Shown here: in pieces, positions 9,000 through 50,363 of the stretch
Layout of the letters: each line of letters opens with the position of its first letter
How positions within the stretch are numbered: the stretch's first letter is position 1
Assembly (NCBI RefSeq): GCF_964355755.1
Contig: NC_092678.1
Coordinates: forward strand, 16,349,881 to 16,413,880
Source of the DNA: Antedon mediterranea
Lineage: Eukaryota > Animalia > Echinodermata
DNA: 64,000 nucleotides
Direction: 5' to 3'
The notes under the pieces: model-generated
What the model was told of the DNA's origin: nothing
Databases searched by the model: none
What the model saw: only the letters and a program-made list of their open reading frames with translations
Made by a program: the position numbers and the translations under genes

Positions 9000-9389
<390 letters not shown>

Positions 9390-11727: not shown

Positions 11728-11761
11728 GTTTGGTTTGAAATGTGTTGAACTGTATAACTGC

Positions 11762-12115
<354 letters not shown>

Positions 12116-15715: not shown

Positions 15716-17256
15716 CTAGAATTTAATTCGTCACTTTGACGAATTATAGGTGATCATTTTTATCATTTTAATGAAATTAACATTTTTTAAACATGCACGT
15801 ACGTTAACATACGATCGTAAAAAGCTGATGTACGCCATCCTATGACATGATGCATATACACTTATAGTGCTGAGTTGTACCTATTATGTACAGTATATAC
15901 TGTATCTATATACAGTGTAGCATAGGTGAAATTACTGGACCCACATCATGTTCAAATTTTTCGGTATGATGGAATTATCAAAATAAACTCGAAGATGACA
16001 GTTTCGAACGATAATGAATTGAGCAAATAAATATAAGGATTGGAAGAGAATTTGGCACGAAGAAGCGCAATGCGCGCTCTTTGAAATTTGTATAACTTCG
16101 ACTAAAGAAATTGAAAAACAACGTTTTAACTTCAACTGGCCATATGAAAACATCACAACATCAGATAGGCTTAATTTTTATATTAATTCATATCTTCATT
16201 TCATCAGCTTTCATAATAAGTTATAATCTTCAAGGTCACCTTTAATTCTGAAGAGCTATAATATATTCAAATGTAAGGTGTAGCTGAAATTACACGACCT
16301 ATGTTATTCAAGTTTTTACGCGTGATAATGTCATCAAAATAAAAATATTGACAACTCCTGAGAAAGATAATTAATTGAGCAAGCACATACTAAAACTTCT
16401 TCGAAAATCGAGCTAAAATAACGGAGATGCGCTCTATTGAATGTGAAAACCCATACAAAAAGATAAAAATTACTAATTTTTAAATTGAAGTGGCCATTTG
16501 ATGACGTCATACCATTTTGTACGTCTAATGTGTACATGAATATGTTTCTACAACCCAATGGCTTCCCGAATAATTTAAAAAAATTGGGGGTCACCTGTCA
16601 TTCTGAAGAGTTATATTCATTTTAAAAAGGCCTTATTTTTCACCATTTTCATCACTTTGATGCAATTAATTTGCGCATTTTGATATTTTTAACCTGCTCG
16701 TATACCGTTATTTTAAGTCGGAACTGACTCAAATTTGGTGAATGTACTAAGGATGGTGAGTAGAATGCGATTTGTATAAAAAATTGCAATTTTTACACTT
16801 TGTAAGTATCGCGCGCGCAAAATAATTTTTTTGCGCAGTAATTTTTTGAAACACGCAAATGGCCTAATTCATGCTCTAAATTGATTAAAACGTAATTTTG
16901 AGCTTTTTAAATTTTTAATGCGCGATTTCACGCGCATGACCCTACGTGCGCGCGCGTTTTTATTTGATAATATTTTTACCCTTGACCTGAAGTTTACGTG
17001 TAGTGAATTTCATTAATATGTGATAATTAATTATGGAGATATGATTGATATTGCGATTTCACAAAATGGCGTATAAATGACGTCACGGGTGAGGGATCAC
17101 GCTGAAAAGCTTATTAGGACTAAGTTAAATTATTTGAAAGACATTCTGAAATTTTGGTAATCATTGACATTAAACTTTTTGAGATATTTGTTACACAAAA
17201 TCTGTACAGAAAGAAATTGCAAAGAAACATTTTTTTTTTACAAAAACAATTTCTCA
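15716..17256 (-). mobile_element. Family A unit A1 (lacks 5' hairpin)
   Basis: Starts on + with CTAGAATTTAATTCGTCACTTTGACGAATTATAGGTGATCAT and ends ...CAAAAACAATTTCTCA. Confidence 0.8.
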
Positions 17257-18799
17257 CTAGAATTTAATTCGTCACTTTGACGAATTATAGGTGATCATTT
17301 TTATCATTTTAATGAAATTAACATTTTTTAAACATGCACGTACGTTAACATACGATCGTAAAAAGCTGATGTACGCCATCCTATGACATGATGCATATAC
17401 ACTTATAGTGCTGAGTTGTACCTATTATGTACAGTATATACTGTATCTATATACACTGTAGCATAGGTGAAATTACTGGACCCACAGCTGATGTTCAAAT
17501 TTTTCGGTATGATGGAATTATCAAAATAAACTCGAAGATGACAGTTTCGAAAGATAATGAATTGAGCAAATAAATATAAGGATTGGAAGAGAATTTGGCA
17601 CGTAGAAGCGCAATGCGCGCTCTTTGAAATTTGTATAACTTCGACTAAAGAAATTTAAAAACAACGTTTTAACTTCAACTGGCCATATGATAACATCACA
17701 ACATCCGATAGGCTTAATTTTTATATTAATTCATATCTTCATTTCATCAGCTTTCGTAATAAGTTATAATCTTCAAGGTCACCTTTAATTCTGAAGAGCT
17801 ATAATATATTCAAATGTAAGGTGTAGCTGAAATTACACGACCTATGTTATTCAAGTTTTTACGCGTGATGATGTCATCAAAATAAAAATATTGACAACTC
17901 CTGAGAAAGATAATTAATTGAGCAAGCACATACTAAAACTTCTTCGAAAATCGAGCTAAAATAACGGAGATGCGCTCTATTGAATGTGAAAACCCATACA
18001 AAAAGATAAAAATTACTAATTTTTAAATTGATGTGGCCATTTGATGACGTCATACCATTTTGTACGTCTAATGTGTACATGAATATGTATCTACAACCCA
18101 ATGGCTTCCCGAATAACTTAAAAAAATTGGGGGTCACCTGCCATTCTGAAGAGTTATATTCATTTTAAAAAGGCCTTATTTTTCACCATTTTCATCACTT
18201 TGATGCAATTAATTTGCGCATTTTGATATTTTTAACCTGCTCGTATACCGTTATTTTAAGTCGGAACTGACTCAAATTTGGTGAATGTACTAAGGATGGT
18301 GAGTAGAATGCGATTTGTATAAAAAATTGCAATTTTTACACTTTGTAAGTATCGCGCGCGCAAAATAATTTTTTTGCGCAGTAATTTTTTGAAACACGCA
18401 AATGGCCTAATTCATGCTCTAAATTGATTAAAACGTAATTTTGAGCTTTTTAAATTTTTAATGCGCGATTTCACGCGCATGACCCTACGTGCGCGCGCGT
18501 TTTTATTTGATAATATTTTTACCCTTGACCTGAAGTTTACGTGTAGTGAATTTCATTAATATGTGATAATTAATTATGGAGATATGATTGATATTGCGAT
18601 TTCACAAAATGGCGTATAAATGACGTCACGGGTGAGGGATCACGCTGAAAAGCTTATTAGGACTAAGTTAAAGTATTTGAAAGACATTCTGAAATTTTGG
18701 TAATCATTGACATTAAACTTTTTGAGATATTTGTTACACAAAATCTGTACAGAAAGAAATTGCAAAGAAACATTTTTTTTTTACAAAAACAATTTCTCA
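17257..18799 (-). mobile_element. Family A unit A2 (lacks 5' hairpin; near-identical to A1)
   Basis: Same termini as A1 with few SNPs. Confidence 0.8.
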
Positions 18800-20349
18800 C
18801 TAGAATTTAATTCGTCACTTTGACGAATTATAGGTGATCATTTTTATCATTTTATTGACATTAATATTTTTTAAACATGCACGTATGTTAACATACAATC
18901 GGAAAATGTTGATGTATGCCATACTATTATACGCTATAGTACTGAGTTGTGCCTATTATATGCCATATACATTATGTACAGTATATACTGTATATCTATA
19001 TACAGTGTAGCATTAGTGAAACTACGGACACACATCATGTTCTAATTTGTTGGCACTGATGACATTATCAAAATAAACTTGTGGATAACAATATCGAAAG
19101 ATAATGAATTGAGCAATAAAATATAGCAATTGGAAGAAAATTTGGCACGTAGAAGCGCGGTGCGCGCTCTTTATAAAATTTGTATAACTTTGACGAAAGA
19201 GATGAAAAAATTGCTTTTAACTTCAACTGGCCATATGATAACGTCACTAGATTCGATAGGCTTAATTTTTATATGAATTCATATCTAAATTTAACCAGCT
19301 CTCTTAATAAGTTATAATTATCAAGGTCAACTTTAATTCAGAAGAGCTGTAAAGTATTCAAATATACGTTGTAGGTGAAATTACCTAACCATCGTTATTC
19401 AAATTTTAAGACGTGATGACGTCATCAAAATGAAAATATTGGAAACACATGAGTAACATAATTGGTTGAAGTAGAATATATTAAAAATTAAAAGAAAATC
19501 GATCACAGATTAGCGAGTTGCGCTCTGTTGAATATGGTAGTCTATAACAAAAGGGGAAGAAACCCTGTTTTAAAAATCCATGTGGCCAAATGATGACGTC
19601 ATACCATTTTGTACGTCTAATGTGTATATACATTTATATCTACAACTCATTGGCTTCCATAATAAGTAAAAAAAATTGGGGGTTACCTTCCATTCTGAAG
19701 AGTTATATTCATTTTAAAGAGGCCTTATTTTTTACCATTTTTAGCACTTTTGTACAATTAATGTGCGCATTTTGTCATTTTTAACGTGCTCGTATAGCAC
19801 TATTTTAAGTCGAAATGGACTCAAATTTGGTGAATGTACTATGAAAGATGAGCAGAATGCAATTTGTACAAAAAAATGTTATTTTTTTACGCTTTCTATG
19901 TACGCACGCGCAAAAACGTGTTTTTACGCAGTAATTTTTTAAAACACGTAAATGGCCTAATTCATGCTCTAAATTGATCAAAACTTAATTTTGAGCTTTT
20001 TAAATTTTTAACGCGCTATTTCATGCGCAAGACCCTACGTGTGCGTGCGTTTTTATTTGCTAATATTTTTACGCTTTACCTGAAGTTTACGTGTAGTGAA
20101 TTTCATTAATATGTGATAATTAATTATGGAGATATGATTGATAATGTGATTTCACAAAATGGCGTATAGATGACGTCACGGATGAGTGATCACGTTGAAA
20201 AGCTTATTAGGACTAAATTAAAGTATTTGAAACACATTCTGAAATTTTGGTAATCATTGACATTAAACTTTTTGAGATATTTGTTACACAAAATCTGTAC
20301 AGAAAAAAATTGCAAAGAAACATTTTTTTTTTACAAAAACAATTTCTCA
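18800..20349 (-). mobile_element. Family A unit A3 (divergent; lacks 5' hairpin)
   Basis: Same termini as A1; the body is clearly more diverged. Confidence 0.8.
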
Positions 20350-23300
20350 CTAGAATTTAATTCGTCACTTTGACGAATTATAGGTGATCATTGTTATCAT
20401 TTTAATGAAATTAACATTTTTTCAACATGCACGTACGTTAACATACGATCGTTAAAAGTTGATATACGCCATCCTATGTCATGATGCATATACACTCATA
20501 CTGAGTTGTACCTATTATGTGTCATACAATATGTACAGTATATACTGTATATCTATATACAGTGTAGCATAGGTGAAATTATGGGACACACATCATGTTC
20601 TAATTTTTTGGTAAGATGGAATTATCAAAATAAACTCGAAGATCACAATTTCGAAAGATAATGAATTACGCAAATAAATATAAAGATTGGAAGAGAATTT
20701 GACACGTAGAAGCGCAATGCGCGCTCTTTGAAATTTGTATAACTTCGACTAAAGAAATTTAAAAACTACGTTTTAACTTCAACTGGCCATATGATAACAT
20801 CACAACATCCGATAGGCTTAATTTTTATATTAATTCATGTCTACATTTTATCAGCTTTCATAATAAGTTATAATCTTCAAGGTCACCTTTAATTCTGAAG
20901 AGCTATAATATATTCAAATTTACGGTGTAGCTGAAATTACACGACCTACGTTATTCAAGTTTTTACGCGTGATGATGTCTTCAAAATAAAAATGTTGACA
21001 ACTCCTGAGAAAGATAATTAATTGAGCAAGCACATACTAAAACTTCTGCGAAAATCGAGCTAAATTAACGGAGATGCGCTCTATTAAATGTGATAACCCA
21101 TACAAAAAGATAAAAATTACTAATTTTTAAATTGAAGTGGCCATTTGATGACGTCATACCATTTTGTACGTCTAATATGTACATGAATATGTATCTACAA
21201 CCCAATGGCTCCCCGAATAACTTAAAAAAATTGGGGGTCACCTGCCATTCTGAAGATTTATATTCATTTTAAAAAGGCCTTATTTTTCACCATTTTCATC
21301 ATTTTGATGCAATTAATTTGCGCATTTTGACATTTTTAACCTGCTCGTATACCGTTATTTTAAGTCGGAACTGACTCAAATTTGGTGAATGTACTAAGGA
21401 TGGTGAGTAGAATACGATTTGTATAAAAAAATTGCAATTTTTACACTTTGTAAGTATCGCGCGCGCAAAATAATTTTTTTGCGCAGTAATTTTTTGAAAC
21501 ACGCAAATGGCCTAATTCATGCTCTAAATTGATCAAAACGTAATTTTGAGCTTTTTAAATTTTTAATGCGCAATTTCATGCGCATGACCCTAAGTGCGCG
21601 CGCGTTTTTATTTGCTAATATTTTTACCCTTGACCTGAAGTTAACGTGTAGTGAATTTCATAAATATGTGATAATGAATTATGGATATATGATTGATAAT
21701 GTGATTTCACAAAATGGCGTATACGTGACGTCACGGGTCAGTGATCACACTGAAAAGCTTATTATGGCTAAGTTAAAGTATTTGAAAGACATTGTGAAAT
21801 TTTTGTGATCATTGTTATTCAACTTTTTGAGATATTTGTTACACAAAAAGTGTACAGAAAGAAAAAAAACTAGACATGTAACTCGTCACTTTGACGAGTT
21901 TGGTTATCCGCAGCGCAAGTGGTGCAACATTAACATTAAGGGAATAGGTTGAGGACAAAAGGAAGTGTTCACGTTGGCATTATGACCTGAACTGAAGAAT
22001 ATGATATGTTGTTATTGCTGAATTTTATTATTTAAATTCATATATAGTATACACAGTATAATCTGTATCCATATCACATACAGTGTAGAATAGGTGAAAT
22101 TACGGGACCCGCTATTTATTGCAATTTTTAACATGTTGACGGTTTTAAAATGAAACGCGAAGGTAGCAATTCCGAAAGGAAATTATCTCAGCAACAACGT
22201 ATTAGCGTGTAGAAGAAATTTGAATACGTGAAATATTGATGCGCGCTCTTTTAAATGTAATGAATTATGACGCAAAAGATGAAAATACGACCTTTTTTAT
22301 TTAACTGGCCATATGATGACGTCACAACATCCGATTGGCAACATTTTAACATAATTTCGTATCTACAATCCAATAGCTTCCAGAAAAAGTTTTAATCGTG
22401 ATTATCACATTTTATTCTTACGAGCTATAACAGATTAAAATTTACTGTAAAGATGAAATTGATGCCACACGTGATTTCAATTTTTAGGCATGATGACGTC
22501 ATAAAAATTAAAATATTTTTCACTCATGCGAAAGATAGTTGATTGACCTAGACAATATCAAAATCGGGGTGAAAATGGAAAACGGATAAGTGGAGATGCG
22601 CTCTATTCAATGTGATGAGCTATGACGAAAGATACAAAAATCCTAAATTTTATATTCGCGTGGCCATACGATGACGTCACAATGTCCGGTTAGCCATATT
22701 AATACCTGATCCGATATCTACAACTCATCTACTTCCAGAATATGCCATCCACAAAAAGTTGACCTTCTAGTTTAGAAATTACGACTGTTTAAAAAAAGGC
22801 ATATTTTAAACGAATTTTTTAACCTTTTCATAAAAAACGCGCGCAAATTGTCCAATTCGACGTGCTCGTATCACGTATCTTTAAGTCGAAATTGTTAAAA
22901 ATTTGGTAAAATTACATGAAAAGGCTGGAAAAACATAAATCACGCAAAAAAAATACGTTTTCAATGCTACGTGCGCACCGCACACGTAAAAATGTGCGCA
23001 CGCGTGGGAATTTTTGACATGCTTAAAACGACATGAAACACGTAGAAAGTTGATTATAAATTAATTTCGCGCATTTTGAAATTTTAAATGCGCGTGCGCG
23101 CGTAACTTTGTGTAAAACACGCAATTTTTTTTCAACAGAAAGTTAGCGCATGATATAAATTAAACTTTTGCAAAGTTTCACTTTAAAATGTTATTTGGTT
23201 TTTGACATATGTTAAATACGAGAAAATCGTTAAATCGCGCGTACGTCACGTTGCGCAATTGTAAACATCATGAAAAGCTTCGCTTGACGACGTTACATAA

Positions 23301-23522
23301 ATGTCAAAATGTTAACATAGTTAACAAAATGTTATGTTTGCAAGTTTCAGAGAAAAGCGTTACACAAAAATCATACAGAAAGAAAGAAGAAAAATAAAAA
23401 GTTGATGTTGATGATTTCGTACAATCACAAGAGGTTATCCTGCAACTTCGTTGCGGATAACCAATAATAAAGATTTCATACAATAACAATAGGTGATCAT
23501 TTTATTCTAAATGATCACCTAA
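20350..23522 (-). mobile_element. Family A element A4, interrupted by B1
   Basis: The A-type closing hairpin TAGGTGATCATTT-TATTCT-AAATGATCACCTAA ends at 23522, after B1. Confidence 0.8.
21870..23464 (-). mobile_element. Family B element B1 (complete, 1595 bp)
   Basis: CTAGACATGTAACTCGTCACTTTGACGAGTTTGGTTATCCGC ... GGTTATCCTGCAACTTCGTTGCGGATAACCAA. Confidence 0.85.
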
Positions 23523-25076
23523 CTAGAATTTAATTCGTCACTTTGACGAATTATAGGTGATCATTGTTATCATTTTAATGAAATTAACATTTTTTAAACA
23601 TGCATGTACGTTAACATACGATCGTAAAAAGTTGATGTACGCCATCCTATGACATGATGCATAATCTTATATCGCTGAGTTGTGCCTATTATATGCTATA
23701 TACAATATGTACAGTATACTGTATATCTATATACAGTGTAGCATAGGTGAAATTACGGGACACACATCATGTTCTAATTTTTTGGTATGATGGAATTATC
23801 AAATTAAACTCAAAGATGACAATTTCGAAAGATAATAAATTGAGCAAATAAATATAAGAATTGGAAGAGAATCTGGCACGTAGAAGCGCTGTGCGCGCTC
23901 TTTGAAATTTGTATAACTTTGACGAAAATGATGAAAAAACTACTTTTTAACTTCATCTGGCCATATGTTAACGTCACAACATCTGATAGGCTTGGTTTTT
24001 ATATGAATTCATATCTACATTTCATCAGCTTTCATAATAAATTATAATCGTCAAGGTAACCTTCAATTCTGAAGAGCTGTAAGATATTCAAATTTACGGC
24101 GAAGGTGAAATTACACGACCTACGTTATTCAAGTTTTTACGCGTGATGACGTAATCAAAATGAAAACACTGACAACTTATGAGAAAGATAAATAATTAAG
24201 CAAGCACACACTGAAATTTGTGCGAAAATCGGGCTCAAATAGCAGAGATGCGCTCTATTGAATGTGATAACCTACACAAAACGGAAAAAAATCCTAATTT
24301 TTAAATTCAAGTGGCCATTTGATGACGTAATACCATTTTGTACGTCTAATGTTTATATACATTTATATCTACAACTTATTGGCTTCCATATTAAGTTAAA
24401 AAAATTGGGGGTCACCTGCCATTCTGAAGAGTTATATTCATTTTAAAAAGGCCTTAATTTTTACAATTTTTTGCACTTTTGTGCAATTAATGTGCGCATT
24501 TTGTCATGTTTAACGTGCTCGTACAGCGTTATTTTAAGTCGGAATGGACTCAAAATCGGAGAATGTACTAAGGATTGTGAGTAGAATGTGATGTTTACAT
24601 CAAATTTTATTTTTTACGCTTTTTACGAATTGAGTGCGCAAAAACACGTTTTTGCGCAGTAATTTTTTAAAACACGCAAATGGCCTAATTCATGCTCTAA
24701 ATTGATCAAAACATAATTTTGAGCTTTTTAAATTTTTAACGAGCGATTTCACGCGCATGACCCTACGTGCGCGTGCATTTTTATTTGCTAATATTTTTAC
24801 CCTTGATCTGAAGTTTACGTATAGTGAATTTCATTAATATGTGATAATTAATTATGGAGATATGATTGATAATGTGATTTCACAAAATGGCGAATAGATG
24901 ACGTCACGGATGAGTGATCACGCTGAAAACTTTATTAGGACTAAGTTAAAGTATTGGAAAGACATTCTGAAATGTTGGTAATCATTGACATTAAACTTTT
25001 TGAGATATTTGTTACACAAAATCTGTACAGAAAGAAATTGCGAAGAAACATTTTATTTTACAAAAACAATTTCTCA
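23523..25076 (-). mobile_element. Family A unit A5 (lacks 5' hairpin)
   Basis: Ends ...CAATTTCTCA, directly joined to A6. Confidence 0.8.
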
Positions 25077-28000
25077 CTAGAATTTAATTCGTCACTTTGA
25101 CGAATTATAGGTGATCATTGTTATCATTTTAATGAAATTAACATTTTTTAAACATGCACGTACGTTAACATACGATCGTAAAAAGTTGATGTACGCCATC
25201 CTATGACATGATGCCTACGCTTATATCGCTGAGTTGTGCCTATTATGTGCCATATACAATATGTACAGTGTATACTGTATATATACAGTGTAGCATAGGT
25301 GAAATTACGGGACACACATCATGTTCTAATTTGTTGGTATGATGGAATTATCAAAATAAACTCAAAGATGACAATTTCGAAAGATAATGAATTGAGCAAA
25401 TAAATATAAGAATTGGAAGAGAATCTGGCACGTAGAAGCGCTGTGCGTGCTCTTTGAAATTTGTATAACTTTGACGAAAAAGATGAAAAAACTACTTTTT
25501 AACTTCATCTGGCCATATGTTAACGTCACAACATCCGACAGGCTTGGTTTTTATATGAATTCATATCTACATTTCATCAGCTTTTATAATAAATTATAAT
25601 CATCAAGGTAACCTTCAATTCTGAAGAGCTGTAAGATATTCAAATTTACGGCGAAGGTGAAATTACACGACCTACGTTATTCAAGTTTTTACGTGTGATG
25701 ACATCATCAAAATGAAAATGTTGACAACTCATGAGAAAGATAAGTAACTGAGCAAGCATATACTAATATTTGTGCGAAAATCGGGCTCAAATAGCGGAGA
25801 TGCGCTCTATTGAATGTGATAAACTACACAAAACGGAAAAAAATCCTAATTTTTAAATTGAAGTGGCCATTTGATGACGTAATACCATTTTGTACGTATA
25901 ATGTGTATATACATTTGTATCTACAACTTATTGGCTTCCAAATTAAGTTAAAAAAATTGGGGGTCATCTGCCATTCTGAAGAGTTATATTCATTTTAAAA
26001 AGGCCCTACTTTTTACCATTTTTAGCACTTTTGTACAATTAATGTGCGCATTTTGTCATTTTTAACGTGCTCGTATAGCGTTATTTTAAGTCTGAATGGA
26101 CTCAAAGTCGGAGATTGTACTAAGGATTATGAGTAGAATGTGATGTATACATCAAATTTTATTTTTTACGCTTTTTAAAAATCCTGTGCGCAAAAATCTA
26201 TTTTTGCGCAGTAATTTTTTAAAACACGCAAATGGCCTATTTTATGCTCTAAATTGATCAAAACTTAATTTTGAGCTTTTTAAAATTTTAACACGCGATT
26301 TCACGTGCATGACCTTGAAACACGTAAGTTTTTATTTGTTAATATTTTTACCCTTCACCTGAAGTTTACGTATAGTGAATTTTATTGATATGTGATAAAG
26401 AGTTATGGAGATATGATTGATAGTGTGATTTCACAAAATCGCGTATACGTGACGTCACGGTTGAGTGATCACGCTGAAAAGCTTATTATGGCTAAGTTAA
26501 AGTATTTGAAAGACACTGTGAATTTTTTGTGATCATTGCCATTCAACTTTTTGAGATAATTGTTACACAAAAAGTGTACAGAAAGAATAAAAAAAATAAA
26601 AACTAGAATTTAATTCGTCACTTTGACGAATTATAGGTGATCATTGTTATCATTTTAATGAAATTAACATTTTTTAAACATGCATGTACGTTAACATACG
26701 ATCGTAAAAAGTTGATGTACGCCATCCTATGACATGATGCATACACTTATATCGCTGAGTTGTGCCTATTATATGCCATATACAATATGTACAGTATATA
26801 CTGTATATCTATATACAGTGTAGCATAGGTGAAATTACGGGACACACATCATGTTCTAATTTTTTGGTATAATGGAATTATCAAAATAAACTCAAAGAGG
26901 ACAATTTCGAAAGATAATGAATTGAGCAAATAAATATAAGAATTGGAAGAGAATCTGGCACGTAGAAGTGCCGTGCGCGCTCTTTGAAATTTGTATAACT
27001 TTGACGAAAAAGATGAAAAAACTACTTTTTAACTTCATCTGGCCATATGTTAACGTCACAACATCCGATAGGCTTGGTTTTTATATGAATTCATATCTAC
27101 ATTTCATCAGCTTCCATAATAAATTATAATCATCAAAGTAACCTTCAATTCTGAAGAGCTGTAAGATATTCAAATTTACGGCGAAGGTGAAATTACACGA
27201 CCTACGTTATTCAAGTTCAAAATGAAAATGTTGACAACTCATGAGAAAGATAAGTAACTGAGCAAGCATATGCTAAAATTTGTGCGAAAATCGGGCTCAA
27301 ATAGCGGAGATGCGCTCTATTGAATGTGATAAACTACACAAAACGGAAAAAAATCCTAATTTTTAAATTGAAGTGGCCATTTGATGACGTAATACCATTT
27401 TGTACGTATAATGTGTATATACATTTGTATCTACTACTTATTGGCTTCCAAATTAAGTTAAAAAAATTGGGGGTCACCTGCCATTCTGAAGAGTTATATT
27501 CATTTTAAAAAGGCCCTACTTTTTACCATTTTTAGCACTTTTGTACAATTAATGTGCGCTTTTTTTCATTTTTAACGTGCTCGTATAGCGTTATTTTAAG
27601 TCTGAATGGACTCAAAGTCGGAGATTGTACTAAGGATTATGAGTAGAATGTGATGTATACATCAAATTTTATTTTTTACGCTTTTTAAAAATTCCGTGCG
27701 CAAAAATATATTTTTGCGCAGTAATTTTTTAAAACACGCAAATGGCCTATTTTATGCTCTAAATTGATCAAAACTTAATTTTGAGCTTTTTAAAATTTTA
27801 ACGCGCGATTTCACGTGCATGACCTTGAAAGACGTAAGTTTTTATTTGTTAATATTTTTACCCTTCACCTGAAGTTTACCTATAGTGAATTTTATTGATA
27901 TGTGATAAAGAGTTATGGAGATATGATTGATAGTGTGATTTCACAAAATCGCGTATACGTGACGTCACGGTTGAGTGATCACGCTGAAAAGCTTATTATG

Positions 28001-28106
28001 GCTAAGTTAAAGTATTTGAAAGACACTGTGAATTTTTTGTGATCATTGCCATTCAACTTTTTGAGATAATTGTTACACAAAAAGTGTACAGAAAGAATAA
28101 AAAAAA

Positions 28107-30966: not shown

Positions 30967-30978
30967 TAAAAATAAAAA

Positions 30979-37422: not shown

Positions 37423-40400
37423 CTAGACATGTAACTCGTCACTTTGACGAGTTTGGTTATCCGCCGCGCAAGTGGTGCAACATTAACATTAAGGGGATAG
37501 GTTGAGGACAAAAGGAAGTGTTCACGTTGGCATTATGACCTGAACTGAAGAATATGATCTGTTGTTATTGCTGAATTTTATTATTTAAATTCATATATAG
37601 TATACACAGTATAATCTGTATCCATATCACATACAGTGTAGAATAGGTGAAATTACGGGACCCGCTATTTATTGCAATTTTTAACATGTTGATGGTTTTA
37701 AAATGAAACGCGAAGTTAGCAATTCCGAAAGCAAATTATCTCAGCAACAACGTATTAGCGTGTAGAAGAAATTTGAATACGTTAAATATTGATGCGCGCT
37801 CTTTTAAATGTAATGAATTATGACGAAAAAGATGAAAATACGACCTTTTTTATTTAACTCGCCATATGATGACGTCACAACATCCGATTGGCAACATTTT
37901 TACATAATTTCATATCTACAATCCAATAGCTTCCAGAAAAAGTTTTAATCGTAATTATCACATTTTATTCTTACGAGCTATAACAGATTAAAATTTACTG
38001 TAAAGATGAAATTGATGCCACATGTGATTTAAATTTTTAGGCATGATGACGTCAAAAAAATTAAAATATTTTTAACTCATGCGAAAGATAGTTGATTGAC
38101 CTAGACAATATCAAAATCGGGGTGAAAATGGAAAACGGATAAGTGGAGATGCGCTCTATTCAATGTGATGAGCTATGACGAAAGATACAAAAATACTAAA
38201 TTTTATATTCGCGTGGCCATACGATGACGTCACAATGTCCGGTTAGCCATATTAATACCTGATCCGATATCTACAACTCATCTACTTCCAGAATATGTCA
38301 TTCACAAAAATTTGACCGTCTAGTTTAGAAATTGCGACTGTTTAAAAAAAGGCATATTTTAAACGAATTTTTTAACCTTTTCATAAAAAACGCGCGCAAA
38401 TTGTCCAATTCGACGTGCTCGTATGACGTATCTTTAAGTCGAAATTGTTTAAAATTTGGTAAAATTACTAGAAAAGGCTGGAAAAACATAAATCACGCGA
38501 AAAAAATACGTTTTCAATGCTACGTGCACACCGCACACGTAGAAATGTGCGCACGCGTGGGAATTTTTGACATGCTTAAAACGACATGAAACGCGTAGAA
38601 AGTTGATTATAAATTAATTTTGCGCATTTTGAAATTTTAAATGTGCGTGCGCGCGTAACTTTGTGTAAAACACGCAATTTTTTTTCAACAGAAATTTAGC
38701 GCATGATATAAATTAAACTTTTGCAAAGTTTCACTTTAAAATGTTATTTGGTTTTCGACATATGTTAAATACGATAAAATCGTTAAATCGCGCGTACGTC
38801 ACGTTGCGCAATTGTAAACATCATGAAAAGCTTCGCTTGACGACGTTACATAAATGTCAAAATGTTAACATAGTTAACAAAATGTTATGTTTGCGAGTTT
38901 TAGAGAAAAGCGTTACACAAAAATCATACAGAAAGAAAGAAGAAGAATAACTAGACATGTAACTCGTCACTTTGACGAGTTAGTTATCCGCACGACAAAG
39001 GTCACGTAGACGTCATACGTTAGAATATTGCACACAGAAAAAGATTGTGGCAATATGACCTGATCTGAAGAATATGATATGTTGTTATTGCTGAATTCTG
39101 TTATTTTGTGTCATATTATATATACAATATAATCTGTATACACATTACATACTGTGTAGAATAGGTGAAATGACTGGACACGCCATTTAATCCAATTTTT
39201 AACATAGCAACGGTATCAAAATGAAATACTAAGATAGCAATTTCGGAAGGAAATTATCTCGGCAACAAAATATTAATGTGTAGAAGAAATTTAAATACGT
39301 AAAATATTGATGCGCGCTCTTTTAAATGTGATGAATTATGACGCAAAAGATGAAAATACGACTTTTTTTATTTAACTGGTCATATGATGACGTCACAACA
39401 TCCGATTGGCAAAATGTTTACATAAATTCGTATCTACTATCCAATAGCTTCCAGAAAACGTTTAATCATGATTATCACGTTTTATTCTGACGAGCTATAA
39501 CAGATTGAAATTTACTGTAAAGACGAAAATAAGTGACCCACGTTATTTACATTTTTAGACATGATGACGTCATAAAAATTAAAATATTTTTAACTCATAC
39601 GAAAGATAGTTGATTGACCTAGATAATATAAAAATCGGGTAAAAATGGAAAACAGATAATTGGAGATGCGCTCTATTAAATGTCATGCGCTATGATGAAA
39701 GATACAAAAATCCTATATTTTATATTCGCGTGGCCATACGATGACGTCACAATATCCGGTTAGCCATATTATTACATGATCCGATATCTACACCTCATCA
39801 ACTTCAAGAATATGTCATCCACAAAAAGTTGACCGTCCAGTTTAGAAATTACGACTGTTTAAAAAAAGGCATAATTTTGACAAATTTTAACGAATTTTTT
39901 ACCTTTTTCATCAAAAACCCACGTAAATTATCCAATTCGACGTGCCTGTATGACGTAATTTTAAGTCTAAATCGTTTAAAAGTTGGTAAAATTACTACAA
40001 AAGGCTGGAAAAACATAAATCACGTGAAAAAAATTGTTTTCAACGCTACGTGCGCACGGCGCGCGTAAAAAATGCGCACGCGTGGGAATTTTTTACCTGC
40101 TCAAAATGACATGAAACGCGTAGAAAGTTGATTAGAAAGTGATTTTTCGCGTTTTGAAATTTTAAACGCGCGTGCGCGCGTAACTTCGTGTAAAACATGC
40201 CATTTTTTTTACAAAGTCAGTTAGCGCAAGATATAACTAAAACTTTTGTTAAGTTTCAATTTAAATTCTTATATGGTTTTCGATGTATGTTAAATACGCG
40301 AAATTCGTTAAAACGCGCGTAAGTCATGTTGTGCAATTCTGACGTCATTCAAAAATAGAAAAGCACAACTTCAGGTGAATACCCATATGTTGACAAAGTT

Positions 40401-40609
40401 ATGAAATGTTAACTTTACACGTTTTTGAGATATGCTCTGCACAAAAATGACAGAAAGAAAGAATAATACAGAAAAAAAAAAAAGATGATGAAACAGGACA
40501 GTTACAAGGAGTTATCCGCTGAGTGCGGATAACTAAAAAGTTGATGATGATGATGATGATTTCGTACAATCACAAGAGGTTATCCTGCAACTTCGTTGCG
40601 GATAACCAA
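37423..40609 (-). mobile_element. Family B element B5, containing D1
   Basis: Body runs to 38950; closing segment 40537-40609. Confidence 0.8.
38951..40536 (-). mobile_element. Family D element D1 (diverged relative of B)
   Basis: SubTIR TTAGTTATCCGC at one end and GCGGATAACTAA at the other; closing hairpin GTTATCCGC-TGAGT-GCGGATAAC. Confidence 0.85.
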
Positions 40610-42192
40610 TAATAAAGATTTCATACAATAACAATAGGTGATCATTTTATTCTAAATGATCACCTAACTAGAATTTAATTCGTCACTTTGACGAATTATA
40701 GGTGATCATTTTTATCATTTTAATGAAATTAATTTTTTTTAAACATGTACGTACGTTAACATACGATAGGAAAATGTTGATGTATGCCATCCTATTATAC
40801 GCTTATATTGCTGAGTTATGCCTATTATATGCCATATACAATGTACAGTATATACTGTATATCTATATACAGTGTAGCATAGGTGAAATTATGGGACACA
40901 CATCAAGTTCAAATTTTTTGGTATGATGGAATTATCAAAATAAACTCGAAGATGACAATTTCGAAAGATAATGAATTGAGCAAATAAATATAAGGATTGG
41001 AAGAGAATTTGACACGTAGAAGCGCAATGCGCGCTCTTTGAAATTTGTATAACTTCGACTAAAGAAATTTAAAAACTACTTTTTAACTTCAACTGGCCAT
41101 ATGATAACATCACAACATCCGATAGGCTTAATTTTTATATGAATTCATATCTACATTTCATCAGCTTTCATAATAAATTATAATCTTCAAGGTCACCTTT
41201 AATTCTGAGGAGCTATAAGATATTCAAATGTATGGTGTAGCTGAAATTACACGACCTAGGTTATTCAAGTTTTTACGCGTGATGACGTCATCAAAATAAA
41301 AATGTTGACAACTTATGAGAAAGATAATTAATTGAGCAAGCACATACTAAAATGTGTGCAAAAATTGGGCTCAAATAACGGAGATGCGCTCTATTGAATG
41401 TGATAACCCACACAAAAAGATAATAATTACTAATTTTTAAATTCAAGTGGCCATTTCATGACGTCATACCATTTTGTACGTCTAATATGTATATATATTT
41501 ATATCTACAACTTATTGGCTTCCATAATAAGTTAAAAAAATTGGGGGTCACCTGCCATTCTGAAGAGTTATATTCATTTTAAAAAGGCCTTATTTTTTTA
41601 CCATTTTTAGCACTTTTGTACAATTATTGTGCGCATTATGTCATTTTTAACGTGCTCGTATAGCGTTATTTTAAGTCGGAATGGACTCAAAGTCGGAGAA
41701 TGTACTAAGGATTGTGAGTAGAATATGATGTATACATCAAATTTTATTTTTTACCCTTTTTAAAAATCGCGTGCGCAAAAATGTGTTTTTTCGCAGTAAT
41801 TTTTTTAAACACGCAAATGGCCTATTTCATGCTCTAAATTGATAAAAACTAAATTTTGAGCTTTTTAAAATTTCAACGCGCGATTTCACGCGCATGACCT
41901 TGAAACGCCCGAGTTTTTATTTGCTAATATTTTTTACCTTGACCTCAAGTTTACGTGTAGTGATTTTCATTAATATGTGATAATGAATTATGGAGATATG
42001 ATTGATAATGTGATTTCACAAAATGGCGTATACGTCACGTCACGGATGAGTGATCACGCTGAAAAGCTTATTAGGACTATGTTAACGTATTTGAAAGACA
42101 TTGTGAAATTTTGGTAATCATTAACATTAAACTTTTTGAGATATTTGTTACACAAAATCTGTACAGAGAGAAATAAATAATAAGAATAAGAA

Positions 42193-43811
42193 CTAGAACT
42201 TAAACTCGTCACTTGAGGACGAGTTTGGTTATCCGCCAGCAACAAAGCGTATCTTGCGTATTCAAGTACTTCCAAGTTATGACTTTTCCAAAAAAAGTAG
42301 GCTATTCAAAATTAAAACTGCCCTCTCAGTGTAATAACCAACTAAACCCTTTTAATTAATTGTTTTCCCGTGACGGGACTCGAACCCGGTACCTCTGATA
42401 CCAAAGTCGGTTGCATTACACATCGAGCCATATGACCACCTGCTGACGAAAATCCGAAGAAAGAGTCCTCGTTCATTCGGTATGTCGTGAACCCCCTCGA
42501 TGCAAGTTGATTATTACATATCAAACTTAAATCATAAATTTTACTATGATGAAATCTTCAAAAATTTTAAACGCTGATATTTTATGAAAGTACATACTTT
42601 CAAGTTTTATATATTAACATGTAAAGAAAAAAGATAAATGTTATGTTTATTGTTTTGCTCTTTGAATAAGTTTATGTTTGTTTGATGATAAATATTTCAA
42701 AAATTATATTTAATATGCAAATAATGTAGCCATCAAACACGTTTTAGCATTCAACACTATAATAAATCAGACCTATGATTCATACACTGCAAGAAATTAA
42801 AATAAAAAATGGGGGTAACCTTGCATTCTGATGAACTGTGTCATTTTTAAAAGTAGACATATTTTGGAACATTTTCACAATTTGTTGACGTTTTCGTGCG
42901 CAACCTGTCATGTTTAACGTGCTCGTAGAACGCCATTTCAAGTTGAAAAGTGAATAAAATAACGTAAAATTGTTAACAGAAGATTTAAAAACACAAATCG
43001 TGTAAAAGAAATGCTCATACCTGTTCCCTGCGCCGTGCGCGCGTAAAAATGTGCGCACCAGTGGCAATTTTTTAAACGCTTAAAATGACCTGAATCGTGC
43101 TCTAATTTAATCAGAAATTGATTTGAAGCATTTTAAAATTTCAAACGCCATTTACGCGCGCACTTTCTAATGTTACAAATTGCGATAGCGTTAAAAAAGT
43201 TAACTATTGATGTGAAGCAAACGTGGCTGAAAATGACGTTAAAAAATATTCATTTGTTTCGAAGTTATAACCAATTTAAGATTTTCAGAAAATCACGCGT
43301 AACTTACGCTACGCGGCTCTGACATCGTCAAAAAGCTTGGCTGGACAACTTCAGTAAAATGTCTATATGTTGAACAAGTTACAAAATGTTATGTTAACGC
43401 GTTACAGAGAAACAGCGTGCACAAATTAGGAGCATTTTAAAATTTCAAACGCAGTTTACGCGCAGACTTTCTAGTGTTCAAAAATTTTCTGAAGAGCGAA
43501 AAAGTTAGCCATTGATGTGAAGAAAACGTGGCTGAAAATTTCGTTAAAAAATATTTATCGGTTTCGAAGTTATGACCGATTTAAGATTTTCAGAAAATCG
43601 CGCGTAACTTACGCTACGCGGATCTGACATTGTCAAAAAGCTTCGCAGTACATCTTCAGTTAATTGTCTATATGTTGACCAAGTTACAAAATGTTATGTT
43701 AACACGTTCAAGAGAAAACGCGTACACAAAATCGGAGAAAGAAAGAAGAATAATAAAAAAAAAAAGTAACACTACAATAACAAAGGTTATCCGCTTGAGG
43801 CGGATAACCAA
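42193..43811 (-). mobile_element. Family C element C2 (1619 bp, one tRNA-like module)
   Basis: Both C termini present; near-identical to C1 29420-30966. Confidence 0.85.
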
Positions 43812-45336
43812 CTAGACATGTAACTCGTCACTTTGACGAGTTTGGTTATCCGCCGCGCAAGTGGTGCAAGATTAACATTAAGGGGATAGGTTGAGGACAA
43901 AAGGAAGTGTTCACGTTGGCATTATGACCTGAACTGAAGAATATGATATTTTGTTATTGCTGAATTTTATCTAAATATAAATTCATATATAGTATACACA
44001 GTATAATCTGTATCCATATCACATACAGTGTAGAATATGTGAACTTACGGGACCCGCTATTTATTGCAATTTTTAACATGTTGACGGTTTTAAAATGAAA
44101 CGGGAAGGTAGCAATTCCGGAAGGAAATTATCTCAGCAACAACGTATTAGCGTGTAGAAGAAATTTGAATACGTGAAATATTGATGCGCGCTCTTTTAAA
44201 TGTAATGAATTATGACGCAAAAGATGAAAATACGACCTTTTTTATTTAACTGGCCATATGATGACGTCACAACATCCGATTGGCAACATTTTTACATAAT
44301 TTCGTATCTACAATCCAATAGCTTCCAGAAAAAGTTTTAATCGTGATTATCAAATTTTATTCTTACGAGCTATAACAGATTAAAATTTACTGTAAAGATG
44401 AAAGTGATGCCACACGTGATTTAAATTTTTAGGCATGATGACGTCAAAAAAATTAAAATATTTTTAACTCATGCGAAAGATAGTTGATTGACCTACACAA
44501 TATCAAAATCGGGGTGAAAATGGAAAACGGATAAGTGGAGATGCGCTCTATTCAATGTGATGAGCTATGACGAAAGATACAAAAATCCTAAATTTTATAT
44601 TCGCGTGGCCATACGATGACGTCACAATGTCCGGTTAGCCATATTAATACCTGATCCGATATCTACAACTCATCTACTTCTAGAAAATGTCATCCACAAA
44701 AATTTGACCGTCTAGTTTAGAAATTACGACTGTTTAAAAAAAGTCATATTTTAAACGAATTTTTTAACCTTTTCATAAAAAACGCGCGCAAATTGGCCAA
44801 TTCGACGTTCTCGTATGACGTATCTTTAAGTCAAAATTGTTTAAAATTTGGTAAAATTACTAGAAAAGGCTGGAAAAACATAAATCACGCGAAAAAAATA
44901 CGTTTTCAATTCTACGTGCGCACCGCACACGTAAAAATGTGCGCACGCGTGGGAATTTTTGACATGCTTAAAACGACATGAAACGCGTAGAAAGTTGAGT
45001 ATAAAGTAATTTTGCGCATTTTGAAATTTTAAATGCGCGTGCGCGCGTAACTTTGTGTATAACACGCAATTTTTTTTCAACAGAAAGTTAGCGCATGATA
45101 TAAATTAAACTTTTGCAAAGTTTCAAGTTGAAATGTTATTTGGTTGTCGAGCTATGTTAAATACGACAAAATCGTTAAATCGCGCGTAAGTCACGTTGCG
45201 CAATTGTAAACGTCATGAAAAGCTTCGCTTGACGACGTTACGTAAATGTCAATATGGTAAGATAGTTACCAAAATGTTATGTTTGCGAGTTTTGGAGAAA
45301 AGCGTTACACAAAAATCATACAGAAAGAAAGAAGAA

Positions 45337-46928
45337 CTAGACATGTAACTCGTCACTTTGACGAGTTTGGTTATCCGCCGCGCAAGTGGTGCAACATTAA
45401 CATTAAGGGGATAGGTTGAGGACAAAAGGAAGTGTTCACGTTGGCATTATGACCTGAACTGAAGAATATGATCTGTTGTTATTGCTGAATTTTATTATTT
45501 AAATTCATATATAGTATACACAGTATAATCTGTATCCATATCACATACAGTGTAGAATAGGTGAAATTACGGGACCCGCTATTTATTGCAATTTTTAACA
45601 TGTTGACGGTTTTAAAATGAAACGCGAAGTTAGCAATTCCGAAAGGAAATTATCTCAGCAACAACGTATTAGCGTGTAGAAGAAATTTGAATACGTTAAA
45701 TATTGATGCGCGCTCTTTTAAATGTAATGAATTATGACGCAAAAGATGAAAATACGACCTTTTTTATTTAACTGGCCATATGATGACGTCACAACATCCG
45801 ATTGGCAACATTTTTACATAATTTCGTATCTACAATCCAATAGCTTCCAGAAAAAGTTTTAATCGTGATTATCACATTTTATTCTTACGAGCTATAACAG
45901 ATTAAAATTTACTGTAAAGATGAAATTAATGCCACACGTGATTTCAATTTTTAGGCATGATGACGTCATAAAAATTAAAATATTTTTAACTCATGCGAAA
46001 GATAGTTGATAGACATAGACAATATCAAAATCGGGGTGAAAATGAAAAACGGATAAGTGGAGATGCGCTCTATTCAATGTGATGAGCTATGACGAAAGAT
46101 ACAAAAATCCTAAATTTTATGTTCGCGTGGCCATACGATGACGTCACAATGTCCGGTTAGCCATATTAATACCTGATCCGATATCTACAACTCATCTACT
46201 TCCAGAATATGTCATCCACAAAAATTTGACCGTCTAGTTTAGAAATTACGACTGTTTAAAAAAAGGCATATTTTAAACGAATTTTTTAACCTTTTCATAA
46301 AAAACGCGCGCAAATTGTCCAATTCGACGTGCTCGTATGACGTATCTTTAAGTCGAAATTGTTTAAAATTTGGTAAAATTACTAGAAAATGCCTGAAAAA
46401 CATAAATCACGCGAAAAAAATACGTTTTCAATGCTACGTGCGCACCGCACACGTAGAAATGTGCGCACACGTGGGAATTTTTGACATGCTTAAAACGACA
46501 TGAAACGCGTAGAAAGTTGATTATAAATTAATTTTGCGCATTTTGAAATTTTAAATGCGCGTGCGCGCGTAACTTTGTGTAAAACACGCAATTTTTTTTC
46601 AACAGAAAGTTAGCGCATGATATAAATTAAACTTTTGCAAAGTTTCATTTTAAAATGTTATTTGGTTTTCGACATATGTTAAATACGAGAAAATCGTTAA
46701 ATCGCGCGTACGTCACGTTGCGCGATTGTAAACATCATGAAAAGCTTCGCTTGACGACGTTACATAAATGTCAAAATGTTAACATAGTTAACAAAATGTT
46801 ATGTTTGCAAGTTTTAGAGAAAAGCGTTACACAAAAATCATACAGAAAGAAAGAAGATTAAGAAAAAGATGATGATGATTTCGTACAATCACAAGAGGTT
46901 ATCCTGCAACTTCGTTGCGGATAACCAA
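45337..46928 (-). mobile_element. Family B element B7 (complete)
   Basis: Both B termini present. Confidence 0.85.
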
Positions 46929-46939
46929 AAATAAAAAGA

Positions 46940-48546
46940 CTAGACATGTAACTCGTCACTTTGACGAGTTTGGTTATCCGCCGCGCAAGTGGTGCAACAT
47001 TAACATTAAGGAGATAGGTTGAGGACAAAAGGAAGTGTTCACGTTGGCATTATGACCTGAACTGAAGAATATGATATGTTGTTATTGCTGAATTTTATTA
47101 TTTAAATTCATATATAGTATACACAGTATAATCTGTATCCATATCACATACAGCTCAGTGACATACAGTGTAGAATAGGTGAAATTACGGGACCCGCTTT
47201 TTATTGCAATTTTTAACATGTTGACGGTTTTAAAATGAAACGCGAAGGTAGCAATTCCGAAAGGAAATTATCTCAGCAACAACGTATTAGCGTGTAGAAG
47301 AAATTTGAATACGTGAAATATTGATGCGCGCTTTTTTAAATGTAATGAATTATGACGCAAAAGATGAAAATACGACCTTTTTTATTTAACTGGCCATATG
47401 ATGACGTCACAACATCCGATGGGCAACATTTTTACATAATTTCGTATCTACAATCCAATAGCTTCCAGAAAAAGTTTTAATCGTGATTATCACATTTTAT
47501 TCTTACGAGCTATAACAGATTAAAATTTACTGTAAAGATGAAATTGATGCCACACGTGATTTAAATATTTAGGCATGATGACGTCAAAAAAATTAAAATA
47601 TTTTTAACTCATGCGAAAGATAGTTGATTGACCTAGACAATATCAAAATCGGGGTGAAAATGGAAAACGAATAAGTGGAGATGCGCTCTATTCAATGTGA
47701 TGAGCTATGACGAAAGATACAAAAATCCTAAATTTTATATTCGCGTGGCCATACGATGACGTCACAATGTCCGGTTAGCCATATTAATACCTGATCCGAT
47801 ACCTACAACTCATCTACTTCCAGAATATGTCATCCACAAAAAGTTGACCGTCTAGTTTAGAAATTACAACTGTTTAAAAAAAGGCATATTTTAAACGAAT
47901 TTTTTAACCTTTTCATAAAAAACGCGCGCAAATTGTCCAATTCGACGTGCTCGTATGACGTATCTTTAAGTCGAAATTGTTTAAAATTTGGTAAAATTAC
48001 TAGAAAAGGCTGGAAAAACATAAATCACGCGAAAAAAATACGTTTTCAATGCTACGTGCGCACCGCACACGTAAAAATGTGCGCACACGTGGGAATTTTT
48101 GACATGCTTAAAACGACATGAAACGCGTAGAAAGTTGATTATAAATTAATTTTGCGCATTTTGAAATTTTAAATGCGCGTGCGCGCGTAACTTTGTGTAA
48201 AACACGCAATTTTTTTTCAACAGAAAGTTAGCGCATGATATAAATTAAACTTTTGCAAAGTTTCACTTTAAAATGTTATTTGGTTTTCGACATATGTTAA
48301 ATACGAGAAAATCGTTAAATCGCGCGTACGTCACGTTGCGCAATTGTAAACATCATGAAAAGCTTCGCTTGACGACGTTACATAAATGTCAAAATGTTAA
48401 CATAGTTAACAAAATGTTATGTTTGCAAGTTTTAGAGAAAAGCGTTACACAAAAATCATACAGAAAGAAAGAAGATTAAGAAAAAGATGTTGATGATTTC
48501 GTACAATCACAAGAGGTTATCCTGCAACTTCGTTGCGGATAACCAA
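46940..48546 (-). mobile_element. Family B element B8 (complete)
   Basis: Both B termini present; inserted at A|T with no TSD. Confidence 0.85.
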
Positions 48547-48602
48547 TGATGATTTCGTACAATCACAAGAGGTTATCCTGCAACTTCGTTGCGGATAACC
48601 AA

Positions 48603-50197
48603 CTAGACATGTAACTCGTCACTTTGACGAGTTTGGTTATCCGCAGCGCAAGTGGTGCAACATTAACATTAAGGGAATAGGTTGAGGACAAAAGGAAGTG
48701 TTCACGTTGGCATTATGACCTGAACTGAAGAATATGATATGTTGTTATTGCTGAATTTTATTATTTAAATTCATATATAGTATACACAGTATAATCTGTA
48801 TCCATATCACATACAGTGTAGAATAGGTGAAATTACGGGACCCGCTATTTATTGCAATTTTTAACATGTTGACGGTTTTAAAATGAAACGCGAAGGTAGC
48901 AATTCCGAAAGGAAATTATCTCAGCAACAACGTATTAGCGTGTAGAAGAAATTTGAATACGTGAAATATTGATGCGCGCTCTTTTAAATGTAATGAATTA
49001 TGACGCAAAAGATGAAAATACGACCTTTTTTATTTAACTGGCCATATGATGACGTCACAACATCCGATTGGCAACATTTTAACATAATTTCGTATCTACA
49101 ATCCAATAGCTTCCAGAAAAAGTTTTAATCGTGATTATCACATTTTATTCTTACGAGCTATAACAGATTAAAATTTACTGTAAAGATGAAATTGATGCCA
49201 CACGTGATTTCAATTTTTAGGCATGATGACGTCATAAAAATTAAAATATTTTTCACTCATGCGAAAGATAGTTGATTGACCTAGACAATATCAAAATCGG
49301 GGTGAAAATGGAAAACGGATAAGTGGAGATGCGCTCTATTCAATGTGATGAGCTATGACGAAAGATACAAAAATCCTAAATTTTATATTCGCGTGGCCAT
49401 ACGATGACGTCACAATGTCCGGTTAGCCATATTAATACCTGATCCGATATCTACAACTCATCTACTTCCAGAATATGCCATCCACAAAAAGTTGACCTTC
49501 TAGTTTAGAAATTACGACTGTTTAAAAAAAGGCATATTTTAAACGAATTTTTTAACCTTTTCATAAAAAACGCGCGCAAATTGTCCAATTCGACGTGCTC
49601 GTATCACGTATCTTTAAGTCGAAATTGTTAAAAATTTGGTAAAATTACATGAAAAGGCTGGAAAAACATAAATCACGCAAAAAAAATACGTTTTCAATGC
49701 TACGTGCGCACCGCACACGTAAAAATGTGCGCACGCGTGGGAATTTTTGACATGCTTAAAACGACATGAAACACGTAGAAAGTTGATTATAAATTAATTT
49801 CGCGCATTTTGAAATTTTAAATGCGCGTGCGCGCGTAACTTTGTGTAAAACACGCAATTTTTTTTCAACAGAAAGTTAGCGCATGATATAAATTAAACTT
49901 TTGCAAAGTTTCACTTTAAAATGTTATTTGGTTTTTGACATATGTTAAATACGAGAAAATCGTTAAATCGCGCGTACGTCACGTTGCGCAATTGTAAACA
50001 TCATGAAAAGCTTCGCTTGACGACGTTACATAAATGTCAAAATGTTAACATAGTTAACAAAATGTTATGTTTGCAAGTTTCAGAGAAAAGCGTTACACAA
50101 AAATCATACAGAAAGAAAGAAGAAAAATAAAAAGTTGATGTTGATGATTTCGTACAATCACAAGAGGTTATCCTGCAACTTCGTTGCGGATAACCAA
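48603..50197 (-). mobile_element. Family B element B9 (complete; apparently identical to B1)
   Basis: 1595 bp; shares B1-specific variants. Confidence 0.85.
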
Positions 50198-50318
50198 TAA
50201 AGATTTCATACAATAACAATAGGTGATCATTTTATTCTAAATGATCACCTAATTACTTTAATAAATAAATCACGAAAATGAAATACAAGCTAATAAAATC
50301 TCTTTAGAGACATGTGGT

Positions 50319-50334
50319 GGCTCTGAAAAGAGCC
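50319..50334 (-). terminator. Histone 3' stem-loop (H2B)
   Basis: GGCTCTTTTCAGAGCC. Confidence 0.95.
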
Positions 50335-50363
50335 GTTTGGTTTGAGATTCAGCAAAATGATGT

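Follow-up and report, generated by a model that had tools for sequence, protein, structure and literature searches.

A four-family nest of gene-less Helitron2/HINE-type elements between histone genes of Antedon mediterranea, probably grown by repeated insertion at resident 5' ends

How does a block of 34.5 kb of repeated, non-coding DNA come to lie between two histone genes? The block occupies positions 15716-50252 of a 64,000-nucleotide stretch of the Antedon mediterranea genome (contig NC_092678.1; the whole stretch is called the window below). An original prediction, made from the letters alone, had read it as a stack of 21 Helentron-type rolling-circle elements with balanced ends, built by repeated site-directed transposition into itself. 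In our analysis, the block consists of 21 nested elements that carry no genes and have Helitron2/HINE-type ends, and it probably grew by repeated, mostly independent rolling-circle insertion at the 5' ends of resident copies.

The nesting can be read directly from the element ends. We read the elements on the minus strand, where the CTAG end is the 3' end and the head hairpin that closes each element is the 5' end. A pattern of a hairpin followed by CTAG matched 21 times at 15716-48603, always on the same strand and inside the block, and had no match in any of 100 shuffled sequences. These openings belong to four families (nine A, nine B, two C and one D), and 17 head hairpins close them (five A, nine B, two C and one D). 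After four A copies with an alternative tail had been taken out, a stack parse gave each closing hairpin an opening of its own family in 17 of 17 cases, an agreement that a random order of the 17 labels would reach once in 4,084,080. The resulting string, A1 A2 A3 A4[B1] A5 A6[A7[C1,B2[B3]]] A8[B4,B5[D1]] A9[C2,B6[B7,B8],B9], is four levels deep, and its 21 elements, 34,537 bp in total, fill the block to the exact base. When inner elements were excised in silico, the host tails resembled those of uninterrupted copies; uninterrupted A linkers are also present in public contigs. The terminus parsing that the original prediction had proposed as a check thus reproduces its nesting: the 21 openings, the 17 family-specific closings and their piles, the last-in/first-out pairing with the same bracket string, the single orientation of all elements and the restoration of host tails were all recovered.

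On the minus strand, each closed element consists of TT, a head hairpin, a T-rich, microsatellite-like linker, a non-coding body of about 1.5 kb, an inverted copy of the 5' repeat, a second hairpin and CTAG. TT starts all 17 closed elements, and the hairpin-CTAG end is found in 21 of 21. Compared with shuffled sequences, the head hairpins have z scores of -5.4 (A), -4.9 (B), -9.3 (C) and -6.5 (D), and the 3' hairpins, with a 9-10 bp stem in the four families, score -4.7, -2.7, -1.7 and -2.7 in the same order. The terminal repeat, of 12, 13, 13 and 14 bp, begins at offset 0-1 from the 5' end (A4, B1, C2 and D1), and its partner lies 29-32 nt from the 3' end, before the 3' hairpin. Each family's 5' end best matches its own 3' subterminal repeat, and the two ends co-vary by family. 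The families are related: B and D are 83% alike over their whole length, A resembles B at about 70% along 640 bp, and C resembles B at about 66% along 550 bp. No open reading frame (ORF) of 120 or more amino acids was found within the block, and the longest stop-free stretch in six representative sequences has 107 amino acids.

The four exceptions are A1, A2, A3 and A5, which share an alternative tail (A') without a terminal-repeat match and without a significant hairpin (z -0.07 to -1.2). We considered A' as a substitute hairpin head and rejected this, as it folds no better than shuffled sequence. The ends are therefore balanced, as had been claimed, for B, C and D; among the A elements this is true of only five of nine. 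Each of the A' tails (17210-17256, 18753-18799, 20303-20349 and 25030-25076) ends in a nearly perfect inverted copy of 13 nt that lie about 60 nt further upstream, in the body of A; they may thus have arisen by template switching. For elements with this tail, read-through that begins at the head of a neighbour may be the only way to move.

To which known elements do these ends belong? Here and below, published systems are compared as they appear in excerpts of the cited papers. Helitron2 elements start with T. Their head hairpin is formed by an asymmetric terminal repeat, 8-15 bp long and located 0-2 nt from the 5' end, and the partner repeat lies about 20-30 nt from the 3' end, directly before a hairpin (PMC3627910). 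The T start, terminal repeat, head hairpin, 3' hairpin and lack of duplication are all found here. The stack elements differ in their 3' CTAG and in the use of sites between A and T (A-T; 9 of 11 readable sites) rather than between T and T (T-T); as HLE2 insertion is described as "generally" T-T (PMC11417382), this marks a variant. Canonical Helitrons (HLE1) begin with TC and lack the terminal repeat, unlike the 5'-TT, repeat and head hairpin seen here, but they too end in a hairpin followed by CTRR and insert at A-T. HINE/DINE-1 elements, which are non-autonomous Helentrons, and the oyster Cg_HINE are non-coding, with a 5' subterminal inverted repeat (subTIR), a nearby inverted repeat, a 3' subTIR and a stem-loop (PMC4067079, PMC7492417). 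They share the microsatellite-like tract behind the head, T-rich targets and lack of duplication, but their ends are flanked by T on both sides, without CTAG, and the excerpts refer to clusters and tandem arrays without mention of ordered nests. Finally, proto-Helentron-Pi of Phytophthora is reported to have 5'-TT, 3'-CTAG and A-T insertion without duplication (PMC4067079, PMC11417382), a likeness by description, and proto-Helentron was the first for which such an end and such sites were reported; it is a 14-kb autonomous oomycete element in which the repeats and the stem-loop are arranged differently (PMC11417382). Judged by their ends, the stack elements appear to behave like non-autonomous Helitron2, of which they are putative members. 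The Helentron-type label given to them earlier is borne out as far as Helitron2/HINE-type end anatomy goes; no transposase with such ends was found in the block or by the pattern scans described below.

The insertion sites fall into two classes. Eleven of the 21 can be read directly, namely the outer site of the stack, which is A-T, and ten insertions 55-73 nt inside a host's 5' end (eight A-T and two T-T). The other ten join head to tail exactly, in four cases at the alternative tail, so the A-T or T-T rule stated earlier covers only the readable sites. The ten internal sites occupy six offsets within a 19-nt window of about 1,590 nt, and 13-19 of the 20 nt 3' of every one of them are T. In agreement with the earlier claim, no target-site duplication was seen: host tails are restored without extra bases, which would be compatible with a single duplicated T, and duplication of TT fails at four A' junctions and at B8, where the 3' flank is TC and TT is therefore ruled out.

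The same kinds of junction are found outside the window. Eleven public runs share part of the sequence, and we examined contigs, not raw reads, from four of them; X8 and X9 represent one sample and X2 a second study. The junctions come from the best 15 of 355 and the best 15 of 62 joints, and depth is not copy number. X8 and X9 contain thousands of variant contigs spanning all four families, and the matches listed include nest junctions that the window does not have: insertions of A and of a C variant into a C linker, A in an A linker, an A head joined to a B end, a B head to an A end, a C head to a C-variant end, and new spacings of B heads. The alternative-tail junction was found in X9 and X2. 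In X5, a contig of 1594 nt contains B in circular permutation: head and tail are joined exactly, the linker tract is missing, and the contig may come from a circle or from tandem copies. This form of B, with none of the T-rich linker left (compare the B linker at 23379-23411), is common in X8, with a joint depth of 21,115; as it offers no internal target, it may give rise to plain arrays or circles.

More distant relatives were recovered from metagenomes, where a strict 3'-end pattern gave no match and a relaxed one gave nine, six of them without similarity to the block. The three that resemble it (L002, L005 and L006) each have their own terminal repeats, and in all three the 3' end adjoins another copy, in a search that was blind to nesting and with a small number of cases. 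The insertion in L002 lies 69 nt inside, in the linker, at A-T, and those in L005 and L006 are head-to-tail; in L005 the head of a complete copy adjoins unrelated DNA. In L002 (435-1623) and L006 (961-2000), bodies lacking the CTAG-hairpin end start directly after another copy, and 3'-truncated units therefore occur in relatives too. The same type of pattern scan gave three matches in viral contigs, none similar to the window, and none in prokaryote genomes.

How could such a nest arise? By analogy with Helraiser, for which strand release, a circle and transfer to an AT step have been described (PMC4778049, PMC5876387), a Rep/helicase protein (RepHel) made elsewhere would peel off a single strand, starting at the 5'-TT hairpin and finishing at the 3' hairpin-CTAG. 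We infer this enzyme, since no RepHel with these ends was found. A joined-end circle would then form and join an A-T (sometimes T-T) step with an AT-rich 3' side, without duplication. The T-rich tract just behind the head hairpin would fix position and orientation, and recruitment of the enzyme to the resident head hairpin or terminal repeat would likely fix the locus. The enzyme must bind heads to start transposition, and could hence be held there and integrate at the nick or in the tract just behind it; a nick at a resident head, used as the acceptor, would yield head-to-tail junctions. Because each insertion adds a new head and a new tract, the stack would feed itself; some duplication and sequence exchange among the A copies is overlaid on these insertions. 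It is possible, if somewhat doubtful, that CTAG-ended Helitron2 elements form a widespread animal lineage whose transposase recognises the head hairpins of resident copies, from its own family as well as from sister families, and inserts at the head nick or into a target tract that the elements maintain to this end. If so, this would be a rolling-circle transposon with a built-in safe haven shared across families, forming ordered stacks of tens of kilobases, and a route to satellite-like arrays without unequal crossover.

Several observations weigh against growth by insertion at resident 5' ends, and we consider them together with the explanations that they favour. Self-targeting is partly plain sequence preference, because the elements carry a T-rich tract themselves. 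A rule of at least 13 T and at least 16 pyrimidines in the 20 nt 3' of the nick, with thresholds set after the sites had been seen, is followed by all ten internal sites; nearly all eligible host positions are in the linker, no recruitment is needed to explain position, and orientation follows as well (220 same-strand sites versus 18 on the opposite strand). Under a 10-nt A-rich target model, clustering in the linker remained strong (log10 P -3 to -13); the 20-nt tract model, which removes the positional enrichment, is taken as the fair null. Solo sites exist, since beyond the A 3' end at least 24 and at least 18 X9 contigs continue as long stretches of unlike DNA, with a flank consensus that is A-rich on the plus strand among the matches listed; HINEs are reported to favour T-rich targets (PMC4067079), no local hopping was seen with Helraiser (PMC4778049), and the window was selected for being a stack. 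Preference for T-rich tracts, which every new copy brings along, might then produce a stack in an extreme window by rich-get-richer growth, with no recognition of copies. We regard this as unlikely. The 29.5 kb of flanks contain 46 tracts that follow the same rule and no full element, only two minus-strand remnants of about 30 bp, yet the block took 20 later elements. Furthermore, the outer site has no long tract, only 6-9 of the 20 nt that follow the ten head-to-tail junctions are T, provided that the older head was the site of insertion, and the relatives from metagenomes adjoin another copy in 3 of 3 cases. The tract is thus a partial explanation: it accounts for position and orientation within the element, not for the choice of locus. 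AT content, which had been named as a rival from the outset, fares in the same way, and of the claimed transposition into itself the bias to resident heads stands; the T-tract explains much of the choice of site within an element.

Alternatively, the block could derive mainly from duplication of a few founding insertions, by unequal crossover, gene conversion, rolling-circle concatemers or read-through composites. A1 and A2 are 99.1% alike and have the same junction, and the A copies are patchworks of each other, so recombination or duplication did contribute. The A'-to-A junction, present four times in the block, is abundant elsewhere (depth 2731 in X9, among the matches listed), and with the mosaic A copies this indicates that some junctions may be imported composites; read-through has been shown for Helraiser (PMC4778049), and four insertions lie at offset 58 in A hosts. 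As the main source, duplication is nonetheless improbable. B1 and B9 are identical over 1595 bp, yet B1 is in an A linker and B9 follows B6; B3 and B4 differ by one base and have B and A hosts, respectively; C1 and C2, 98.9% alike, are at offsets 70 and 55. This placement of identical and nearly identical copies at separate junctions makes it likely that most insertions were independent events. Apart from A1/A2, elements joined head-to-tail show 84-98% identity or belong to different families, a pattern that a single rolling-circle concatemer would not produce; the four offset-58 sites contain different elements, and a reciprocal crossover between A4 and A5 was rejected as their switch points (about columns 1340-1470 and 1140-1250) do not coincide. 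A satellite of head-to-tail units with one shared junction does not fit six offsets for ten nested sites. The earlier statement that this is no unequal-crossover satellite therefore holds for the nesting, and has to be softened for the A copies. The order of head-to-tail insertion is ambiguous, as B9=B1 fits insertion at the older head and B4=B3 the opposite. Could a different enzyme, such as a tyrosine recombinase or another HUH transposase, act at the ends? No RepHel or transposase with these ends was found among the block ORFs or by pattern scans of metagenomes, viral contigs and prokaryote genomes, and the 3' CTAG and A-T sites depart from the HLE2 rule of T-T (PMC11417382). However, the 5'-T, head hairpin, asymmetric repeat and 3' hairpin fit the Helitron2 definition (PMC3627910), neither a terminal direct repeat nor, apart from A/T, a common core is present, and the head-to-tail join, as in the circularly permuted X5 contig, is that of a Helitron circle; another enzyme is thus very improbable. 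An order created by misassembly of a repeat-rich region is barely credible: B1 and B9 are identical and the public contigs are short, none spanning the block, but mis-joins would not give 17 of 17 family-matched heads with base-exact tails, most copies differ by 1-17%, and the same junction types are found in other data.

If the block grew by repeated insertion at resident 5' ends, what is new about it? In Fusarium, FoHeli elements of the Helitron2 type have repeated 5' termini of 31-85 nt, for which self-insertion near the 5' end was proposed (PMC5148889), with up to five such termini (PMC13342296); joined-end circles are reported from Fusarium, and a three-copy tandem, possibly from insertion into a 5' end, from Metarhizium (PMC5148889, PMC13342296). 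In the excerpts, however, the existence of a FoHeli nest is for the most part deduced from a single body that carries additional heads, and the ends are TCAG...ATTTT, whereas here both bodies and heads are kept, four deep and in four families, with a second, head-to-tail class of sites. For maize Helitrons, nesting was proposed as the source of multiple termini, and they favour landing near each other (PMC3288121); bat Helitrons can adjoin 5' end to 3' end, and Helraiser favours AT-rich DNA 3' of the insertion (PMC4778049). The maize and bat elements differ in having a TC start and no terminal repeat or head hairpin, and the excerpts describe no fixed internal target window. We found nothing on ordered self-nests in the excerpts of PMC12001565 or PMC13085455, and no description of intact multi-family stacks with a fixed target window in a search that mostly did not extend to subscription papers; the FoHeli and Helraiser supplements may show nests. 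The original prediction knew of no description of this architecture, and within that search this stands for an intact multi-family stack, but proposals of self-insertion exist for Fusarium Helitron2 (PMC5148889), as do proposals of nesting for maize Helitrons (PMC3288121). Self-insertion is thus already known; what is new is the preserved four-family nest, the two classes of sites and the same habit in distant relatives. Helitron target choice is poorly known beyond the AT step, and a fixed landing window on the element itself opens targeting to tests with short substrates. Stacks also keep in complete form an intermediate whose existence in fungi and maize had been deduced from multiple 5' ends, and their order records the succession of active families. 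Such blocks are liable to be annotated as 1.6-kb satellites. The elements are listed in Table 1.

Table 1. Elements of the stack and adjoining histone genes (window coordinates; distances in nt are from the host's 5' end)
Feature	Positions	Strand	Description	Database match
Whole stack	15716-50252	-	21 co-oriented non-coding elements; depth at most 4; outer site A-T on the element strand	
A1	15716-17256	-	1541 bp; normal 3' end, alternative head (A')	
A2	17257-18799	-	1543 bp; alternative head; 99.1% to A1	
A3	18800-20349	-	1550 bp; alternative head; most diverged A	
A4	20350-23522	-	body 20350-21869, head 23465-23522; host of B1 at 58 nt	
B1	21870-23464	-	1595 bp; intact; identical to B9	
A5	23523-25076	-	1554 bp; alternative head; mosaic	
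A6	25077-34287	-	body 25077-26602, head 34230-34287; host of A7 at 58 nt	
A7	26603-34229	-	segments 26603-28106, 30967-30978, 34172-34229; host of C1 (70 nt) and B2 (58 nt)	
C1	28107-30966	-	2860 bp; internal duplications	
B2	30979-34171	-	body 30979-32503, head 34102-34171; host of B3 at 70 nt	
B3	32504-34101	-	1598 bp; depth 4; one mismatch to B4	
A8	34288-40667	-	body 34288-35824, head 40610-40667; host of B4 and B5 (head-to-tail) at 58 nt	
B4	35825-37422	-	1598 bp; intact	
B5	37423-40609	-	body 37423-38950, head 40537-40609; host of D1 at 73 nt, T-T	
D1	38951-40536	-	1586 bp; 83% to B	
A9	40668-50252	-	body 40668-42192, head 50198-50252; host of C2, B6 and B9 (head-to-tail) at 55 nt	
C2	42193-43811	-	1619 bp; 98.9% to C1 over aligned columns	
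B6	43812-48602	-	segments 43812-45336, 46929-46939, head 48547-48602; host of B7 (67 nt, T-T) and B8 (56 nt)	
B7	45337-46928	-	1592 bp	
B8	46940-48546	-	1607 bp; 3' flank TC	
B9	48603-50197	-	1595 bp; identical to B1, different junction	
Histone H1 gene	13384-13986	-	beyond the stack 3' end	PF00538
Core histone gene	50364-50732	-	3' stem-loop match 50293-50339, about 40 nt from the stack 5' end	Pfam, Rfam

The original prediction did not include the setting of the block, which lies within a histone cluster. The window is AT-rich DNA with two histone gene units (2709-12690 and 13140-57622), in which Pfam assigns two ORFs to H1 and six to core histones, and Rfam detects ten histone 3' stem-loops. 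The block is flanked by an H1 gene and by a core histone gene that, from its sequence, we take to be H2B, all on the minus strand. The units have the order H1-H2B-H3-H2A plus a fifth stem-loop, which likely marks H4, and the stack is co-oriented with the genes. Both histone genes beside the 34.5-kb insertion are still open and retain their 3' stem-loops. The second unit in the window has no comparable block; we considered its paralogous part (2709-6168) as an empty site for the whole block, but because its spacer differs it does not provide a clean one.

The bodies have repeats of their own. Family C contains an internal repeat of about 300 bp (28163-29746 and 42247-42560), which is expanded in C1 and holds, on the minus strand, words that we take to be A-box-like and B-box-like; a tRNA-like identity was unsupported by ARAGORN and Rfam. 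Families A, B and D carry a duplicated module of 140-190 bp, with the copies about 355 bp apart. The bodies of distant families and of L002, L005 and L006 retain short words, for example TGACGTCA (0-4 copies each) and AAAATGGCG.

Other features lie elsewhere in the window. A histone spacer holds, at 11511-11541 (minus strand), a 31-bp degenerate copy (90%) of the 3' end of family A, which runs in the opposite direction to the stack, and a low-depth X5 contig carries the spacer sequence adjoining it. The histone spacers at 1370-2044, 6159-6924, 51526-52312 and 53942-54832 contain one reverse transcriptase fragment and three inverted-repeat insertions resembling miniature inverted-repeat transposable elements. 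A large inverted repeat at 60576-64000, with arms of about 880 bp that are 92% alike, encloses a 75-bp minisatellite, and a reverse transcriptase fragment (63349-63801) lies in the same region. A perfect palindrome at 58808-58846, bounded by CTAG and with the core GCGAGCGAAGCGAGC, is possibly the remnant of another small mobile element.

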